Source: a phage. Taken from it: a DNA stretch of 64,000 nucleotides. The notes beneath the pieces are model-generated. The model did not search any database, was not told the origin of the DNA, and worked only from the letters and a program-made list of their open reading frames with translations. A program made the translations under genes and the position numbers. Of this stretch, positions 7,490 through 39,729 are shown one piece after another. Numbering within the stretch: position 1 is the stretch's first letter; each line of letters opens with the position of its first letter. The stretch lies in the sequence record PZ452598.1; one strand, 5' to 3'.

Positions 7490-7992
7490 TTAAAAGTATT
7501 TTTTAAAACTCATCATAACTTTATCATCAACATCATTATCAATCTGTGCAACAAGGTAAGATGACAGTTCTACTTCTTGCGGCGCGGATTGAACATTATC
7601 AGAATTAAGATATTCACGAATCCAAGGATATGGATGTTTAACCGGAGCATCGGTAATTGGGCATGGAAGACCGCACTGTTTCATACGAGATACAGTTAAG
7701 TAATCAATAAAGCTCCACATGCTATTTGTATTTAATCCAGGAACATCACCATCTTTAAATAAATGAACTGCCCAGTCTTTTTCCTGGCGGTTAACTTCCA
7801 TGAAAATATCAACTGCTTCTTGTTCACACTCTTGGGCAATTTTAACCCATTCATCACCATCAGTACCGGATTGAAGTTGACGAATAATATATTGGGTGCC
7901 TTTAAGGTGAAGCTGTTCATCACGTGCAATGAACTTCATAATCTTGGCATTACCTTCCATGATTTCCATGTTCTTATGGAAGTTAAAGGTAC
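7490..7992 (-). CDS. nrdB: ribonucleotide reductase small subunit NrdB, exon 2
   Basis: ORF track 7490..8023; 3' splice site placed after G at 7993 so junction codon is UGU (Cys) and spliced product is 388 aa. Confidence 0.85.
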
Positions 7993-8590
7993 CGTATGTT
8001 CGATTGAGCTCGCTAATTCTCAACCCGTTCTCTTATGAACTGCTGCATGTTACCATGCAGTCCAGACTATATCACAATCCCGGAGGGATTCTCCCCATTT
8101 CGAGTCGCTTGACCCTACGTCCGAAGACTAGTCGTTGAACCTTGTTTTGCAATTGTCGCCGTGCCATCGTTTATATGTTGATGGTGATAAATCTTTCTTA
8201 TCACAATATGGACAATTCAATTGAATTCTATTTGGATTTAATTTACATCTGTCATTATGTTTTAGATAAAATCCAGGACCTTTACCAATGTGACCACAGA
8301 AATCACATGTGATTTCTTTTTGTGCAGGATGGGTCCCGTTCTTAACCATTTCTAATGTTTTTGCTGATGTTCTTTTCTTATGTTCTTCCATCAGAATCTT
8401 TAGGTATAGGTCCGTTAGCATCTATCCAAATTTTTCTATAGTTCAATTGTGCATCCTCTTAAAAGTATAATCATATTTATATTATACTAATTAAAGGTGC
8501 AAGCAAAACCTTGGCTGCTAGTTTTCCATAAAGGACTTTCCAGCAATTAAAGGAGTTTTCGATAAACGTTACCGTTTAAAGGCGCATTTT
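7993..8590 (-). mobile_element. group I self-splicing intron in nrdB (598 nt)
   Basis: 5' exon ends in U, intron ends in G; length equals the T4 nrdB intron as I recall; contains a truncated endonuclease ORF. Confidence 0.85.
8128..8421 (-). pseudogene. I-TevIII: truncated I-TevIII-like intron ORF (97 aa, Cys-rich zinc-finger region only)
   Basis: ORF track 97 aa inside the nrdB intron; CxxC...CxxC motifs; T4 copy is reported as defunct. Confidence 0.6.
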
Positions 8591-9254
8591 ACGCAAAAGA
8601 TACATAAAAACGAATAGCTTCTAAGGCATTAATAACGTGCAAACAGAGGTAAAGAGATTTCATCAGATCTCGTTTAGCTCTTTGCTCAACGTCTTTATCA
8701 GCTAGAATTAGACCTTGGTCTTTATAATATTCAACCATGTCTTTAGCATTTTCCCATTCACGGGTTTTAACCAAGACATCATCGTAATATCGCCCAATGG
8801 ACTCAGCACGTTTCATAATAGCTTCATCTAATACAATCTCATCAAACACCTTCGATGGATCAGTATAAAGATTTCGCATGATATGAGTATATGAACGACT
8901 GTGAATAGTTTCACTAAAAGTCCATGTAGCAACCCATGTATCAAGGCTTGGGTCTGAAATTAATGACATAAGTACAGCAGATGGCGCACGACCCTGAATG
9001 CTATCCAAAAGTGATTGATACTTCAGGTTGTTAGTAAAAATATTTTGCTGATACTGAGGAAGCTTATTAAATTGCGCAGCATCCATCATTAAGTTTACTT
9101 CTTCAGGACGCCAAAAAAAACTGATCTGCCGCTCAATGAGTTCTTCAAATACTCGATGTCGTTGAATATCATATCGAGCTAAACCTAATCCAGAACCAAA
9201 GAACATCGGTTCATTCAAAACATCAACTGGATTTGTATTAAAAACTGTACTCAT
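8591..9254 (-). CDS. nrdB: ribonucleotide reductase small subunit NrdB, exon 1
   Basis: ORF track 8589..9254; ORF ends ...FYVSFA then UAA, which starts the intron. Confidence 0.85.
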
Positions 9255-9949
9255 TTAGAATCCTTAAATTTACATTTATCATAATGCCATCTTAAAGCAT
9301 TGCCTTTATTAACTTTCTTACCACAGTGCGGGCAAGGTGGATACTCTGCTCCTTGTTTAGTTCTCAAAGAAATCAAATCACGGGTTTCTTTAGTATGAGG
9401 AACATCTCTTGTCGGAGAAATTGTACCATACATCGGATTAAGCACGCCGACTTTAGCAGCAGCTATATTCTTTTTAGCTTCTTCAGTTTTAGGCTTTCTC
9501 ATCTTTTTCTTAGTTTCTTCGCTTTTAGCCCTTCCTTTGGTTGCCGCCGATATTTTGTGTTTGGTTTCTTCTGTTAAACGCAGACCTGTTTTCGCTTTTG
9601 ACATTTTCAGTCTCGTTTCTTCAGAAATGACCGTACCTTTGCGAAATTGCGAATTTAACTTCTTTGCATGGGCATATATTTTAGAATGAACTTTATAATG
9701 ACGTTTCTTAGTTCCTTTCATATTGCACATCATGAAAAATGCGAATATAACAGATTTTACCGGATAAATCTTTGATAAAATAGCATGCGCTATAAAATGC
9801 TCTCTAGCTGTTAATTCAACTAAATTTTCTTTATCATCAGAACCTCCCATGCATCTAGGGATTATATGATGTGTCTCTTTATATTCGGATAAAGGTTCCC
9901 GAGCCTGAGCTCGGGAAATTAGGTCGTTATAGATTTTTTGATAATTCAT
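9251..9949 (-). CDS. mobE: free-standing HNH homing endonuclease (232 aa)
   Basis: ORF track 232 aa; HNH motif HHIIPRCMGGSDDKENLVELTAREH; sits between nrdA and nrdB as T4 mobE does. Confidence 0.8.
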   Translation of the reverse strand: MNYQKIYNDLISRAQAREPLSEYKETHHIIPRCMGGSDDKENLVELTAREHFIAHAILSKIYPVKSVIFAFFMMCNMKGTKKRHYKVHSKIYAHAKKLNSQFRKGTVISEETRLKMSKAKTGLRLTEETKHKISAATKGRAKSEETKKKMRKPKTEEAKKNIAAAKVGVLNPMYGTISPTRDVPHTKETRDLISLRTKQGAEYPPCPHCGKKVNKGNALRWHYDKCKFKDSK

Positions 9950-12530: not shown

Positions 12531-12759
12531 ATTGTTTTTCCGTTAAAACAGTAATATCGTAGTAACAGTCAGAAGAAGTTTTAACTGTGGAAATTTTATT
12601 ATCAAAATACTCACGAGTCATTTTATGAGTATAGTATTTTTTACCATAAATGGTAATAGGCTGTTCTGGTCCTGGAACTTCTAACTCGCTTGGGTTAGGA
12701 AGTGTAAAAAGAACTACACCAGAAGTATCTTTAAATCGTAAAATCATATATCCTCGCAA
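12484..12759 (-). CDS. hypothetical protein (nrdA.2 position)
   Basis: ORF track 91 aa. Confidence 0.5.
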
Positions 12760-12767
12760 TAATAAAA

Positions 12768-13079
12768 TTACACCGCCATCTTTCCTTTAATAGGAGGGTG
12801 TGATACATAGTTGTTAAGAACGAAATCTTTAGGCCTAAGTTTAAGAACATATTTTAATTGTTCTTTAGTAGAAAGATATCGGAATTTATAAGGTAGACCA
12901 CTTATTACCAGCTCACAAAGCTCTTTAGGTTCACGCCTCAAAATTTCTTTACATTGTTCTACGTGATTCATATAGATATGAGTATTACCACCAGAAAATA
13001 TCAAATCCCCTGGAATAAGATTACACATCTTAGCTACAATATGAACTAACGTAGCATATGACGCAATATTAAACGGTAG
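12768..13079 (-). CDS. td: thymidylate synthase, exon 2
   Basis: ORF track 12768..13082; its initial AUG is the last 3 nt of the intron; exon starts CUACCG (LPFNIAS...). Confidence 0.9.
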
Positions 13080-14095
13080 CATTATGTTCAGATAAGGTCG
13101 TTAATCTTACCCCGGAATTATATCCAGCTGCATGTCACCATGCAGAGCAGACTATATCTCCAACTTGTTAAAGCAAGTTGTCTATCGTTTCGAGTCACTT
13201 GACCCTACTCCCCAAAGGGATAGTCGTTAGGCATTTATGTAGAACCAATTCCATTTATCAGATTTTACACGATAAGTAACTAATCCAGACGAAATTTTAA
13301 AATGTCTAGCTGCATCTGCTGCACAATCAAAAATAACCCCATCACATGAAATCTTTTTAATATTACTAGGCTTTTTACCTTTCATCTTTTCTGATATTTT
13401 AGATTTAGTTATGTCTGAATGCTTATGATTAAAGAATGAATTATTTTCACCTGAACGATTTCTGCATTTACTACAAGTATAAGCAGAAGTTTGTATGCGA
13501 ACACCGCACTTACAAAACTTATGGGTTTCTGGATTCCAACGCCCGTTTTTACTTCCGGGTTTACTGTAAAGAGCTTTCCGACCATCAGGTCCAAGTTTAA
13601 GCATCTTAGCTTTAACAGTTTCAGAACGTTTCTTAATAATTTCTTCTTTTAATGGATGCGTAGAACATGTATCACCAAACGTTGCATCAGCAATATTGTA
13701 TCCATTAATTTTAGAATTAAGCTCTTTAATCCAAAAATTTTCTCGTTCAATAATCAAATCTTTCTCATATGGAATTTCTTCCAAAATAGAACATTCAAAC
13801 ACATTACCATGTTTGTTAAAAGACCTCTGAAGTTTTATAGAAGAATGGCATCCTTTTTCTAAATCTTTAAAATGCCTCTTCCATCTCTTTTCAAAATCTT
13901 TAGCACTTCCTACATATACTTTATTGTTTAAAGTATTTTTAATCTGATAAATTCCGCTTTTCATAAATACCTCTTTAAATATAGAAGTATTTATTAAAGG
14001 GCAGTCCTACAATTTAGCACGGGATTGTCTACTAGAGAGGTTCCCCGTTTAGATAGATTACAAGTATAAGTCACCTTATACTCAGGCCTCAATTA
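13080..14095 (-). mobile_element. group I self-splicing intron in td (1016 nt)
   Basis: 5' junction ...UUGGGU|UAAUUGAGGCCUGAGUAUAAGG and 3' end ...AACAUAAUG| read directly; length matches T4 td intron. Confidence 0.92.
13227..13964 (-). CDS. I-TevI: I-TevI GIY-YIG intron homing endonuclease (245 aa)
   Basis: ORF track 245 aa inside td intron; N-terminal GIYQIKNTLNNKVYVGSAKDFEKRWKRH. Confidence 0.93.
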   Translation of the reverse strand: MKSGIYQIKNTLNNKVYVGSAKDFEKRWKRHFKDLEKGCHSSIKLQRSFNKHGNVFECSILEEIPYEKDLIIERENFWIKELNSKINGYNIADATFGDTCSTHPLKEEIIKKRSETVKAKMLKLGPDGRKALYSKPGSKNGRWNPETHKFCKCGVRIQTSAYTCSKCRNRSGENNSFFNHKHSDITKSKISEKMKGKKPSNIKKISCDGVIFDCAADAARHFKISSGLVTYRVKSDKWNWFYINA

Positions 14096-15237
<1,142 letters not shown>

Positions 15238-26073: not shown

Positions 26074-29000
26074 ATGGCTACTTTAAAACAAATACAATTT
26101 AAAAGAAGCAAAATCGCAGGAACACGTCCTGCTGCTTCAGTATTAGCCGAAGGTGAATTGGCTATAAACTTAAAAGATAGAACAATTTTTACTAAAGATG
26201 ATTCAGGAAATATCATCGATCTAGGTTTTGCTAAAGGCGGGCAAGTTGATGGCAACGTTACTATTAACGGACTTTTGAGATTAAATGGCGATTATGTACA
26301 AACAGGTGGAATGACTGTAAACGGACCCATTGGTTCTACTGATGGCGTCACTGCAAAAATTTTCAGATCTACACAGGGTTCATTTTATGCAAGAGCAACA
26401 AACGATACTTCAAATGCCCATTTATGGTTTGAAAATGCCGATGGCACTGAACGTGGCGTTATATATGCTCGCCCTCAAACTACAACTGACGGTGAAATAC
26501 GCCTTAGGGTTAGACAAGGAACAGGAAGCACTGCCAACAGTGAATTCTATTTCCGCTCTATAAATGGAGGCGAATTTCAGGCTAACCGTATTTTAGCATC
26601 AGATTCGTTAGTAACAAAACGCATTGCGGTTGATACCGTTATTCATGATGCCAAAGCATTTGGACAATATGATTCTCACTCTTTGGTTAATTATGTTTAT
26701 CCTGGAACCGGTGAAACAAATGGTGTAAACTATCTTCGTAAAGTTCGCGCTAAGTCCGGTGGTACAATTTATCATGAAATTGTTACTGCACAAACAGGCC
26801 TGGCTGATGAAGTTTCTTGGTGGTCTGGTGATACACCAGTATTTAAACTATACGGTATTCGTGACGATGGCAGAATGATTATCCGTAATAGCCTTGCATT
26901 AGGTACATTCACTACAAATTTCCCGTCTAGTGATTATGGCAACGTCGGTGTAATGGGCGATAAGTATCTTGTTCTCGGCGACACTGTAACTGGCTTGTCA
27001 TACAAAAAAACTGGTGTATTTGATCTAGTTGGCGGTGGATATTCTGTTGCTTCTATTACTCCTGACAGTTTCCGTAGTACTCGTAAAGGTATATTTGGTC
27101 GTTCTGAGGACCAAGGCGCAACTTGGATAATGCCTGGTACAAATGCTGCTCTCTTGTCTGTTCAAACACAAGCTGATAATAACAATGCTGGAGACGGACA
27201 AACCCATATCGGGTACAATGCTGGCGGTAAAATGAACCACTATTTCCGTGGTACAGGTCAGATGAATATCAATACCCAACAAGGTATGGAAATTAACCCG
27301 GGTATTTTGAAATTGGTAACTGGCTCTAATAATGTACAATTTTACGCTGACGGAACTATTTCTTCCATTCAACCTATTAAATTAGATAACGAGATATTTT
27401 TAACTAAATCTAATAATACTGCGGGTCTTAAATTTGGAGCTCCTAGCCAAGTTGATGGCACAAGGACTATCCAATGGAACGGTGGTACTCGCGAAGGACA
27501 GAATAAAAACTATGTGATTATTAAAGCATGGGGTAACTCATTTAATGCCACTGGTGATAGATCTCGCGAAACGGTTTTCCAAGTATCAGATAGTCAAGGA
27601 TATTATTTTTATGCTCATCGTAAAGCTCCAACCGGCGACGAAACTATTGGACGTATTGAAGCTCAATTTGCTGGGGATGTTTATGCTAAAGGTATTATTG
27701 CCAACGGAAATTTTAGAGTTGTTGGATCAAGCGCTTTAGCCGGCAATGTTACTATGTCTAACGGTTTGTTTGTCCAAGGTGGTTCTTCTATTACTGGACA
27801 AGTTAAAATTGGCGGAACAGCAAACGCACTGAGAATTTGGAACGCTGAATATGGTGCTATTTTCCGTCGTTCGGAAAGTAACTTTTATATTATTCCAACC
27901 AATCAAAATGAAGGAGAAAGTGGAGACATTCACAGCTCTTTGAGACCTGTGAGAATAGGATTAAACGATGGCATGGTTGGGTTAGGAAGAGATTCTTTTA
28001 TAGTAGATCAAAATAATGCTTTAACTACGATAAACAGTAACTCTCGCATTAATGCCAACTTTAGAATGCAATTGGGGCAGTCGGCATACATTGATGCAGA
28101 ATGTACTGATGCTGTTCGCCCGGCGGGTGCAGGTTCATTTGCTTCCCAGAATAATGAAGACGTCCGTGCGCCGTTCTATATGAATATTGATAGAACTGAT
28201 GCTAGTGCATATGTTCCTATTTTGAAACAACGTTATGTTCAAGGCAATGGCTGCTATTCATTAGGGACTTTAATTAATAATGGTAATTTCCGAGTTCATT
28301 ACCATGGCGGCGGAGATAACGGTTCTACAGGTCCACAGACTGCTGATTTTGGATGGGAATTTATTAAAAACGGTGATTTTATTTCACCTCGCGATTTAAT
28401 AGCAGGCAAAGTCAGATTTGATAGAACTGGTAATATCACTGGTGGTTCTGGTAATTTTGCTAACTTAAACAGTACAATTGAATCACTTAAAACTGATATC
28501 ATGTCGAGTTACCCAATTGGTGCTCCGATTCCTTGGCCGAGTGATTCAGTTCCTGCTGGATTTGCTTTGATGGAAGGTCAGACCTTTGATAAGTCCGCAT
28601 ATCCAAAGTTAGCTGTTGCATATCCTAGCGGTGTTATTCCAGATATGCGCGGGCAAACTATCAAGGGTAAACCAAGTGGTCGTGCTGTTTTGAGCGCTGA
28701 GGCAGATGGTGTTAAGGCTCATAGCCATAGTGCATCGGCTTCAAGTACTGACTTAGGTACTAAAACCACATCAAGCTTTGACTATGGTACGAAGGGAACT
28801 AACAGTACGGGTGGACACACTCACTCTGGTAGTGGTTCTACTAGCACAAATGGTGAGCACAGCCACTACATCGAGGCATGGAATGGTACTGGTGTAGGTG
28901 GTAATAAGATGTCATCATATGCCATATCATACAGGGCGGGTGGGAGTAACACTAATGCAGCAGGGAACCACAGTCACACTTTCTCTTTTGGGACTAGCAG

Positions 29001-37486: not shown

Positions 37487-37502
37487 AAGGGCCGAAGCCC
37501 TT
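37487..37502 (-). promoter_or_regulatory. UUCG-tetraloop hairpin overlapping the rII-fusion stop codon, followed by SD and ATG of next ORF
   Basis: AAGGGC-UUCG-GCCCUU then AAGGAAAAUUAUG; no U-run. Confidence 0.4.
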
Positions 37503-38928
37503 ATTTAAATTGTTCAGTAACGTCTTCAACTACTTCATATTGGCAGGTACGCATTTTAGCATCGTTGTAATCAATCGGAATTGATACTACATCGCGAGGA
37601 TGAACTTTAACTTTTACAACTCGGCTGGTTGAACTACCAAAGTGACGAATATAAGATTTAGAACACACATGCAAACCACGAGAACAAGTTTGTGTATCAT
37701 CGTCATTCACACGAGTACGTGGCATTTTAACTACTTTACCCGGACTGTTATCAAAGGTGTTTGAGTGACAGTCAAAGTAATTGCTGCGAACTACTTTCCA
37801 AGCATAGAAGTAACCATCTTCTGTAATTTCAATATCGTTTGCTACCAAGAAATCAAAGAGTCGAGATACCGCTTTTTGGCTTGGGTTTTCCAACAGATTT
37901 TCCAAGAACGGAAAATAAAATTCAAAGTTTTCGCCTTTTTCCATCGAGTCAAGAATACGATCAACCAAACCAGACCGCAATTCAATATTTTGATAGAACA
38001 AGCTTCCACCTTCAATTCGAACATCGCCGGAAATATATTTTTCAACAGCACGACGAACATTAATTTTTTGTGCCGCTTCTTCCAACTTATCCGCTACAAG
38101 CAGATTAAGAATTTCCTGGAAGTTTGAATGAGTATTAGGAGTTGCGTTATAAGTTACGCCATCAACAGTAATTGAAATGAATTTTTTAGATGCATTCCAA
38201 ATAATGTCAGATTTAGCAACTGGAGCAATAACTGCATCGCTATTAACTTTAACTGTAATATCACCGCTAATAGTCATCAAAATCCGGAAAATAATCATTT
38301 CGCGGTCAAGACCATTAATGATAGCCAAATCTTTGAACGGTCGCATGATATAAGAAACTTCATAAGCAAAGTTTCTAAAGTCTTTTTCTTCAACTGGAAC
38401 TACGATTTCAATACCAGTTTTATCATCTGGACCCATTTCTTTTACGAATGTAGGTTTAATCTGTGGACCATCACCATCCATGTAAGCTACATAACCACGA
38501 ATTTCACCTTTATGATACGAAGTAATACTAAACGTATCAGTATAACTAAACGGAGATTTAGAACCTAAACCAAATCCGCCAATAAAGTCATTAGATTCAG
38601 CTTTAGATGAACTGAAGTATGAATTATACAACCCAGGAGAATTATCATCACCTTGAATATCAAAATCACTCATACCCGGACCAAAATCTCGACAAACAAA
38701 TCGTGGGTCTAAACGTCCAGGAACTTGTATGATAAATTTTTCAGGATTTCCATTAAGTGCATGAGCATCAATCATGTTAGTAATCAATTCACGGACTACT
38801 GCGCGAATCTTGTTTGTATACAAATCAGATGACAGAATTTTAAATACTTTAGGAGATGCTGTGATGCTAAATGCTTTTGATTTAGAACCATTACCAAGAA
38901 TTGTTTCTTTTTCAGTGGTGATAATCAT
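37501..38928 (-). CDS. rIIA/rIIB: rIIA–rIIB in-frame fusion protein (475 aa)
   Basis: ORF track 475 aa; N-terminal GHKL ATPase motifs as in rIIA, C-terminal part recognised as rIIB-like; locus about 1.7 kb shorter than separate rIIA (725 aa) + rIIB (312 aa). Confidence 0.7.
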
Positions 38929-39196: not shown

Positions 39197-39541
39197 CTAC
39201 TGGCTCATCCATTCTTTACGAAGGTCAGCATTATCTCCCATGAGCATTTCAAAAAGCTCTTTCCAGTTCTCAGGAAGTTTAACAACATCATATACTGGGT
39301 TTTGAATCATCTCACGATATTCAGATTTTTCCAAAGAGCCAAGTCCCTTAATATAACGGATGCTATGTTTAGGTAGAGCATCTTTGGCACTCTCATATTC
39401 AGCGACTGTATAAAACCATTCTTGTTTTTTACCGACCTGAGCGATGATTACAGGAGTTTTGACAAAGCGAATTCGTCCTTGCTCAAACAATTCTGGCCAA
39501 TTACTAAAAAATCCGAGCAGAGAAGGATAAATAGAACCTAA
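39197..39541 (-). CDS. 60: gene 60 topoisomerase II small subunit, codons 47–160 (after the bypass)
   Basis: track ORF 39197..39490 extended upstream in frame to the landing site; resumes UUA GGU UCU... Confidence 0.92.
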   Translation of the reverse strand, partial: LGSIYPSLLGFFSNWPELFEQGRIRFVKTPVIIAQVGKKQEWFYTVAEYESAKDALPKHSIRYIKGLGSLEKSEYREMIQNPVYDVVKLPENWKELFEMLMGDNADLRKEWMSQ

Positions 39542-39591
39542 TCCAATAATCTCTTAATTATGAGGTATTTCTATAGATAGCCCGAAGGCTA
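39542..39591 (-). other. 60: gene 60 50-nt translational bypass (hop) element
   Basis: take-off GGA 39594..39592, UAG stop 39591..39589, stem-loop with UUCG loop, landing GGA 39544..39542. Confidence 0.93.
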
Positions 39592-39729
39592 TCCATCGTG
39601 ATCTGCGTCTGTCATAATAGCGACATTCGCATAGTTCATTGAAGAGGATTTAATAGAACGACGAACATTGTTCTGCAATTTATATTTTTTCATATCAACG
39701 CTAGAAGAATCAATTTTTACAAATTTCAT
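39592..39729 (-). CDS. 60: gene 60 topoisomerase II small subunit, codons 1–46 (before the bypass)
   Basis: MKFVKIDSSSVDMKKYKL...MTDADHDG then UAG; track ORF 39589..39780 has an upstream extension. Confidence 0.92.

Follow-up and report, generated by a model that had tools for sequence, protein, structure and literature searches.

The td locus

The stretch of DNA analyzed (64,000 nt of phage sequence, record PZ452598.1, termed the window) displays a thymidylate synthase (td) reading frame on its minus strand, as seen in the open reading frame list and translations. The frame is interrupted. An open reading frame at 14644..14093 runs to ...DVFLG and is closed by an in-frame TAA (UAA in the RNA), and the td frame resumes beyond an insert at 14095..13080 that is exactly 1016 nt long. 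Both the stop directly after ...VFLG and the 1016-nt gap had been reported in a preliminary description made from the sequence alone. The locus has the following layout:

14096..14644, minus strand: td exon 1, 183 codons, ends ...DVFLG; annotated td in T4
13080..14095, minus strand: td group I intron, 1016 nt, starts with UAA (an in-frame stop) and has G as its last base
13227..13964, minus strand: I-TevI open reading frame, 245 aa plus stop, intron nt 132–869, in the P6 loop with its 3′ end abutting P7
12768..13079, minus strand: td exon 2, 103 codons plus stop, starts LPFNIASY...

The ATG of td exon 1 and the frd stop codon overlap (ATGA). At the 5′ junction the minus strand reads TTGGGT/TAATTGAGGCCTGAGTATAAGG (the slash marks the junction), and in longer context TTCTTGGGT/TAATTGAGGCCTGAGTATAAGG. 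At the 3′ junction it reads AACATAATG/CTACCG, and in longer context GAACATAATG/CTACCGTTTAAT. These are the junctions that had been proposed, and the proposed coordinates, 13080–14095, are the exact intron boundaries; that the gene is on the minus strand had been left unstated. Splicing in silico joins exon 1 to exon 2 as ...GTTTTCTTGGGT/CTACCGTTTAAT... The exons of 549 nt and 312 nt encode 183 and 103 aa, which gives the total of 286 aa claimed earlier.

The edges of the insert coincide exactly with the exon junction of the intron-less td gene of phage T2, GGT/CT, in an alignment. The T2 td sequence (AY310907.2) shows no gap across GGT/CT when aligned to the junction spliced in silico, and matches this query in one piece with 96.6% identity. 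Thus the insert boundaries are fixed independently. A string search of T2 with the exact T4 junction string gives no match, which is due to synonymous differences; the alignment does find the T2 junction.

The joined exons encode a complete thymidylate synthase. Residues 2–286 match the Pfam Thymidylat_synt profile (PF00303) over positions 1–266 of 266 with 318.9 bits, and full coverage of the profile needs both exons joined. The spliced protein aligns with the T4 thymidylate synthase crystal structure 1TIS in a single alignment over residues 1–286. Among the matches listed, the other thymidylate synthase chains likewise give one alignment each, over approximately the whole length and through DVFLG/LPFNIASY, the conserved motif within which the intron site lies.

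Relation to phage T4 and other features of the window

A megablast search of 50,697 phage records shows window positions 12700–14700 to be 100.0% identical (2001/2001 nt) to at least 11 T4-type records. The fully identical records include M12742.1 (the original td sequence), T4T HM137666.1, RB55 and RB59. The match to the T4 td intron given earlier is thus borne out in sequence, in td insertion site and in the length of 1016 nt. The RefSeq record NC_000866.4 displays 99.85% identity to the 2-kb region, with only three differences. A TA/AT swap at 14552/14551 results in Thr at thymidylate synthase residue 32 in the window and Ser32 in the reference; 1TIS also carries Ser at this residue. There is also one extra T near 14004 in NC_000866.4, so that its intron has 1017 nt. 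NC_000866.4 is probably the outlier at these positions, as the window sequence is shared there by at least 11 other T4-type records.

In the NC_000866.4 annotation, td is a two-piece join CDS with frd and nrdA.2 as neighbors, and I-TevI is described as ‘DNA endonuclease encoded by group 1A intron in td; GIY-YIG family’. Judged by nucleotide identity, the td intron and I-TevI of the window are the type specimen T4 element, which is already known. No property of the td copy in the window departs from the characterized T4 element.

The window as a whole is T4 DNA that starts near T4T coordinate 130482, passes the conventional record origin and ends near 27261. A deletion of 1699 nt has removed the 3′ two-thirds of rIIA along with the beginning of rIIB; the junction is at 38274/38275 and the deletion is located at a CCG(C)TAATAGT microhomology. 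There is a second rII lesion, a 1-nt deletion near position 38296, 22 nt from the junction, and the frame is restored. The resulting in-frame rIIA-rIIB fusion open reading frame (37501–38928, minus strand) has 475 aa and consists of rIIA aa 1–210, an 8-aa out-of-frame linker (MIIFRILM) and the last 257 aa of rIIB. No record among the 50,697 phage records spans the fusion junction. A T4 stock with an rIIA-rIIB fusion deletion resembling r1589 of Benzer and Champe has been described in the BASEL paper (PMC8594841). The rII fusion in the window resembles that of this r1589-like stock, and the window therefore comes from a T4 rII deletion laboratory strain.

An exact match to GGATAGCCTTCGGGC is found at 39580–39594 on the minus strand. 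We take this sequence to comprise the take-off and stop codons and the beginning of the hairpin in the 50-nt translational bypass of T4 gene 60. The adjacent open reading frame at 39197–39490 looks like the post-gap part of gp60.

Distribution of the intron and ORF-deleted relatives

With the spliced junction as query, 379 of 581 matching records contain at least 80% of the query in one place, an approximate count since an 80% match need not span the junction and covers both intron-less (T2) and short-intron (UPWr_E2) alleles. With the 2-kb intron-containing query the comparable count is 196 of 647 records. From these two counts the td intron appears to be patchily distributed, as expected of a mobile element. 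The td introns of the collection differ from that of T4 at only a handful of positions.

Phages UPWr_E2 (PP418986.1) and ESh30 (ON528740.1) carry an insert of 320 nt at the same td position (851–1170 of each extracted locus). These short introns are the T4 intron minus 696 nt (T4 intron nt 104–799), with few substitutions, and the two phages share identical deletion endpoints. They are similar to T4 in insertion site and have a nearly identical ribozyme core. Unlike T4, the promoter and ribosome-binding region and the I-TevI open reading frame are gone, with the exception of the last 70 nt of the frame, stop codon included. This deletion leaves both introns without an endonuclease of their own by which to home.

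In the UPWr_E2 and ESh30 deposits, td is entered as two separate genes, and three very small ‘hypothetical proteins’ are annotated in place of the intron. Many intron-containing Tequatrovirus relatives have approximately 210–420 nt more than T4 across frd-td-nrdA.2. UPWr_E2 displays a 207-nt open reading frame between frd and td (extracted locus 96–302); in T4, frd and td overlap by ATGA.

The ribozyme core

The preliminary description called for a covariance-model search for the group I core (P3–P9), and this was run. At gathering scores (50 bits for RF00028, Intron_gpI) the Rfam scan of the whole window gives 0 matches, and no group I intron. A permissive scan with the full model finds RF00028 at 13128–13358 (minus strand); its 40.3 bits (E = 1.8e-8) fall short of the cut-off of 50. 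This alignment places P1–P6 inside the I-TevI open reading frame and was rejected, as the true 5′ half is located 870 nt upstream. The permissive scan also gives weak snoRNA, sRNA and group II matches inside the open reading frame, which are at chance level and were dismissed.

Separate scanning of the two flanks of the open reading frame gives a different picture. The 5′ flank (window 13975–14105) matches RF00028 model positions 1–129 with 16.4 bits (E = 0.025, a 3′-truncated match) and takes in P1, P2, the P3 5′ strand, P4, P5 and P6. The 3′ flank (window 13128–13232) matches model positions 137–253 with 28.9 bits (E = 5.2e-6, a 5′-truncated match) and takes in the P3 3′ strand, P8, the P7 strands and P9. 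The two halves are in the right order and on the right strand around the open reading frame. The ORF-deleted natural copies of UPWr_E2 and ESh30 give 66.9 and 70.3 bits over model positions 1–253, which is above the cut-off of 50. The silence of Rfam on the td intron is therefore due to the 738-nt open reading frame in P6, which splits the ribozyme core; as a case against an intron it was rejected, since the flanks and the ORF-deleted copies confirm the split core. The elements assigned in the T4 intron are:

13965..14095, minus strand: 5′ ribozyme segment, intron nt 1–131, RF00028 positions 1–129
14088..14082, minus strand: P1 3′ strand (IGS), in the 5′ segment
14083..14062, minus strand: P2, in the 5′ segment
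14057..14052, minus strand: P3 5′ strand, in the 5′ segment
14048..14043 and 14024..14019, minus strand: P4, in the 5′ segment, where P5 and the start of P6 are also found
13080..13226, minus strand: 3′ ribozyme segment, intron nt 870–1016, RF00028 positions 137–253
13225..13220, minus strand: P7 5′ strand, in the 3′ segment, where P7.1 and P7.2 are also found
13186..13181, minus strand: P3 3′ strand, in the 3′ segment
13180..13161, minus strand: P8, in the 3′ segment
13155..13150, minus strand: P7 3′ strand, in the 3′ segment
13144..13129, minus strand: P9, in the 3′ segment, where the distal P9 elements are also found
13080, minus strand: terminal G (omega-G), last base of the intron

In P1, UUGGGU/U pairs with GGCCUGA at 7 of 7 positions, with U(-1)·G9 as the wobble of the 5′ splice site; the Rfam alignment agrees on this P1 assignment. 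The helices consist entirely of standard pairs and are in canonical order: P2 (9/9), P3 (6/6), P4 (6/6), P7 (6/6), P8 (7/7) and P9 (5/5), with P7.1 and P7.2 fully paired. The P3/P7 pseudoknot is present, and the conserved P7 strands GACUA and UAGUC align to RF00028. P7.1 and P7.2 are among the features that define group I subclasses (PMC3984707), and their presence fits the ‘group 1A’ label of the T4 record. The minimum free energy structure of an ORF-deleted construct recovers P1, P2, P3, P4, P7.1, P7.2, P8 and P9; relative to mononucleotide shuffles its stability is modest (z = −1.94), by a method that is blind to the P7 pseudoknot.

The insert could be read instead as a free-standing homing endonuclease cassette that does not splice, with td split into pieces that are separately translated or inactive. 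The automatic annotation of some relatives, ‘thymidylate synthase (x2)’ with two separate CDSs, would agree with this, as would the silent Rfam gathering scan of the window. However, the two halves of the group I model are both found in the flanks, the ORF-deleted copies pass the curated threshold, and the T4 sequence has every core helix as well as the U·G pair and the terminal G. In addition, the insert boundaries are exactly those of the T2 junction, the curated T4 record joins the exons, and self-splicing is documented, the T4 td, nrdB and nrdD introns being described as self-splicing (PMC2988022, PMC3984707). That the insert is a cassette of this type and not a group I intron is considered extremely improbable.

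The I-TevI endonuclease

The intron contains a single long open reading frame, 13964..13227 on the minus strand (245 aa, intron positions 132–869). Its earlier identification as a 245-aa GIY-YIG open reading frame, I-TevI, agrees with its length and with three Pfam domains above threshold. These are GIY-YIG (PF01541) at aa 3–90 (66.8 bits, cut-off 22.6), I-TevI_ZnF (PF22635) at aa 149–179 (73.4 bits) and I-TevI_DNA-bd (PF20987) at aa 192–242 (110.5 bits). A NUMOD3 match is sub-threshold. Residues 130–245 are identical to PDB 1I3J. Residues 1–97 are identical to PDB 1MK0 with the exception of an engineered substitution, Ala in the structure and Glu75 in the window; PDB 1LN0 matches the same residues with an equal score. 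The translation displays GIY (4–6), YVG (17–19), R27, E75 and N90, and we take the last three to be the catalytic residues. The full domains and the identity to solved structures indicate that the I-TevI open reading frame is intact. I-TevI is the best characterized homing endonuclease of the T-even phages (PMC2988022).

Two other homing endonuclease genes or remnants are found near td in the window:

9251–9949, minus strand: mobE, a free-standing HNH homing endonuclease gene between nrdA and nrdB
approximately 8024–8588, minus strand: T4 nrdB group I intron, with an open reading frame at 8128–8421 and nrdB exons at 8589–9254 and 7490–8023

mobE, I-TevI and the I-TevIII remnant constitute three endonuclease genes within 6 kb, and the T4 record also has segG, a few kb further on from td. 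The nrdB intron matches RF00028 at 8043–8283 with 35.7 bits (E = 1.1e-6), which is under the gathering score. Like the td intron, it belongs to group I, interrupts a nucleotide-metabolism gene of this phage and has an endonuclease open reading frame in a peripheral loop. It differs in host gene and in its endonuclease, I-TevIII, which is of the HNH family and not of the GIY-YIG family. The I-TevIII open reading frame is truncated (97 aa) and defunct in T4 (PMC2790892, PMC1865063). Unlike this remnant, I-TevI is intact.

An intron that is real but carries a decayed or inactive I-TevI would have precedents in the 97-aa remnant of the nrdB intron and in UPWr_E2 and ESh30, where the 696 nt lost span most of the open reading frame. 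The window sequence, however, has the full length of 245 aa with all three domains above threshold, differs from the crystallized catalytic and DNA-binding domains by the engineered mutation alone, retains R27, E75 and N90, and has the same DNA as the open reading frame annotated I-TevI in T4 records. Decay of I-TevI in the window therefore has an exceedingly small probability.

I-BmoI is encoded in a group I intron of a thyA gene, a Bacillus host gene, and has another insertion site. It shares with I-TevI, as do other GIY-YIG intron endonucleases of thymidylate synthase genes, the modular GIY-YIG nuclease architecture; it is a distinct protein. I-BmoI is described as a GIY-YIG homing endonuclease (PMC2853131, PMC3161791).

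Homing site, operator-like sequence and RNA hairpin

Four elements related to the action and expression of I-TevI are found at the 5′ side of the intron and in exon 1:

14118..14122, minus strand: CAACG, I-TevI cleavage-site motif (5′-CNNNG-3′), −27..−23 from the insertion site
13990..14012, minus strand: operator-like sequence, intron nt 84–106, resembles the exon junction
13995..13988, minus strand: late-promoter-like AATAAATA box, overlapped by the operator-like sequence
13954..14004, minus strand: RNA hairpin over the I-TevI ribosome-binding site

The I-TevI binding region extends across the insertion site, and the intron now separates it from CAACG. Cleavage by I-TevI requires 5′-CXXXG-3′ and takes place in a homing site of 38 bp, at 23 and 25 nt upstream of where the intron inserts (PMC2988022). 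The location of CAACG at −27..−23 fits the distance reported for cleavage.

The AATAAATA box is one base off the T4 late-promoter consensus, which we take to be TATAAATA. The operator-like sequence has 14 of 20 ungapped matches to the exon junction, and 3.5% of shuffles are as good; the likeness between operator and homing site is thus supportive but not strong alone. The review gives 15 of 20 for the operator and homing site (PMC2988022), and the difference from the 14 of 20 found here is probably one of register. I-TevI is autorepressed by way of an operator that overlaps its own late promoter (PMC2988022), and the position of the operator-like sequence over the AATAAATA box agrees with this published operator.

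The RNA hairpin pairs the Shine-Dalgarno GAGG (13973..13970) and the AUG (13964..13962) with upstream intron sequence. It has a predicted stability of −16.6 kcal/mol (z = −3.41), and 0 of 200 shuffles are equally stable. It matches the published I-TevI hairpin, which holds back I-TevI translation until late infection and thereby protects splicing (PMC2988022).

Proposed mechanism

It is virtually certain that the feature represents the phage T4 td intron, a self-splicing group I intron of subgroup IA that carries I-TevI, with homing and restrained expression of the endonuclease. The chance that the interruption is bridged by other means is close to nil, be it by an intein, by a group II intron or by ribosomes that bypass it as they do in T4 gene 60 (the gene 60 take-off sequence is likewise found in the window): the weak group II D1–D4 match inside the open reading frame (E = 9) has 12.5 bits against a cut-off of 34.5 and is at chance level, an intein would not open with an in-frame stop and hold many more, the gap of 1016 nt is far beyond the 50-nt bypass of gene 60, and the RF00028 halves, the ORF-deleted copies and the core helices are specific to group I.

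For the T4 td intron, the steps of splicing are established in the literature and can be read onto the window copy from its anatomy. The td transcript would fold into the P1–P9 core. The U·G pair of P1 marks the 5′ splice site, where an exogenous guanosine would attack; the freed exon 1 would then attack after the terminal G. The exons joined in this way would form the mRNA for the 286-aa enzyme.

I-TevI, encoded in the P6 loop, would act as a monomeric GIY-YIG homing endonuclease. It would bind the uninterrupted exon junction of intron-less td alleles, e.g. that of T2, and cut at CAACG, 23 and 25 nt upstream. The cut allele would then receive the intron by recombinational repair off the intron-bearing copy (homing). 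The expression of I-TevI may be restrained in two ways. The operator, similar to the homing site and overlapping the late promoter, would provide the first, and the hairpin, by occluding the ribosome-binding site in read-through transcripts, would provide the second. Self-splicing, cleavage, homing by double-strand-break repair, autorepression and translational delay are properties we infer for the window copy from the literature.

Significance

No intron had been found in a prokaryotic system before that of td, and the importance of this element is historical and not one of discovery. A methodological point does emerge. The window has two real group I introns, td and nrdB, and both give 0 matches at the Rfam gathering score, since their long P6-loop open reading frames split the core beyond what the model can bridge. 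The curated Rfam threshold misses group I introns with a core split by a long open reading frame, and separate scanning of the flanks of the open reading frame recovers both halves of the group I model.

With respect to the 320-nt introns of UPWr_E2 and ESh30, the spread of an endonuclease-less derivative of this type has not been explicitly described in the literature as far as it was checked. It is possible, although somewhat doubtful, that these introns represent a derivative that is spreading without its endonuclease. They would then offer a snapshot of the gain and decay of a homing endonuclease in present-day Tequatrovirus populations.
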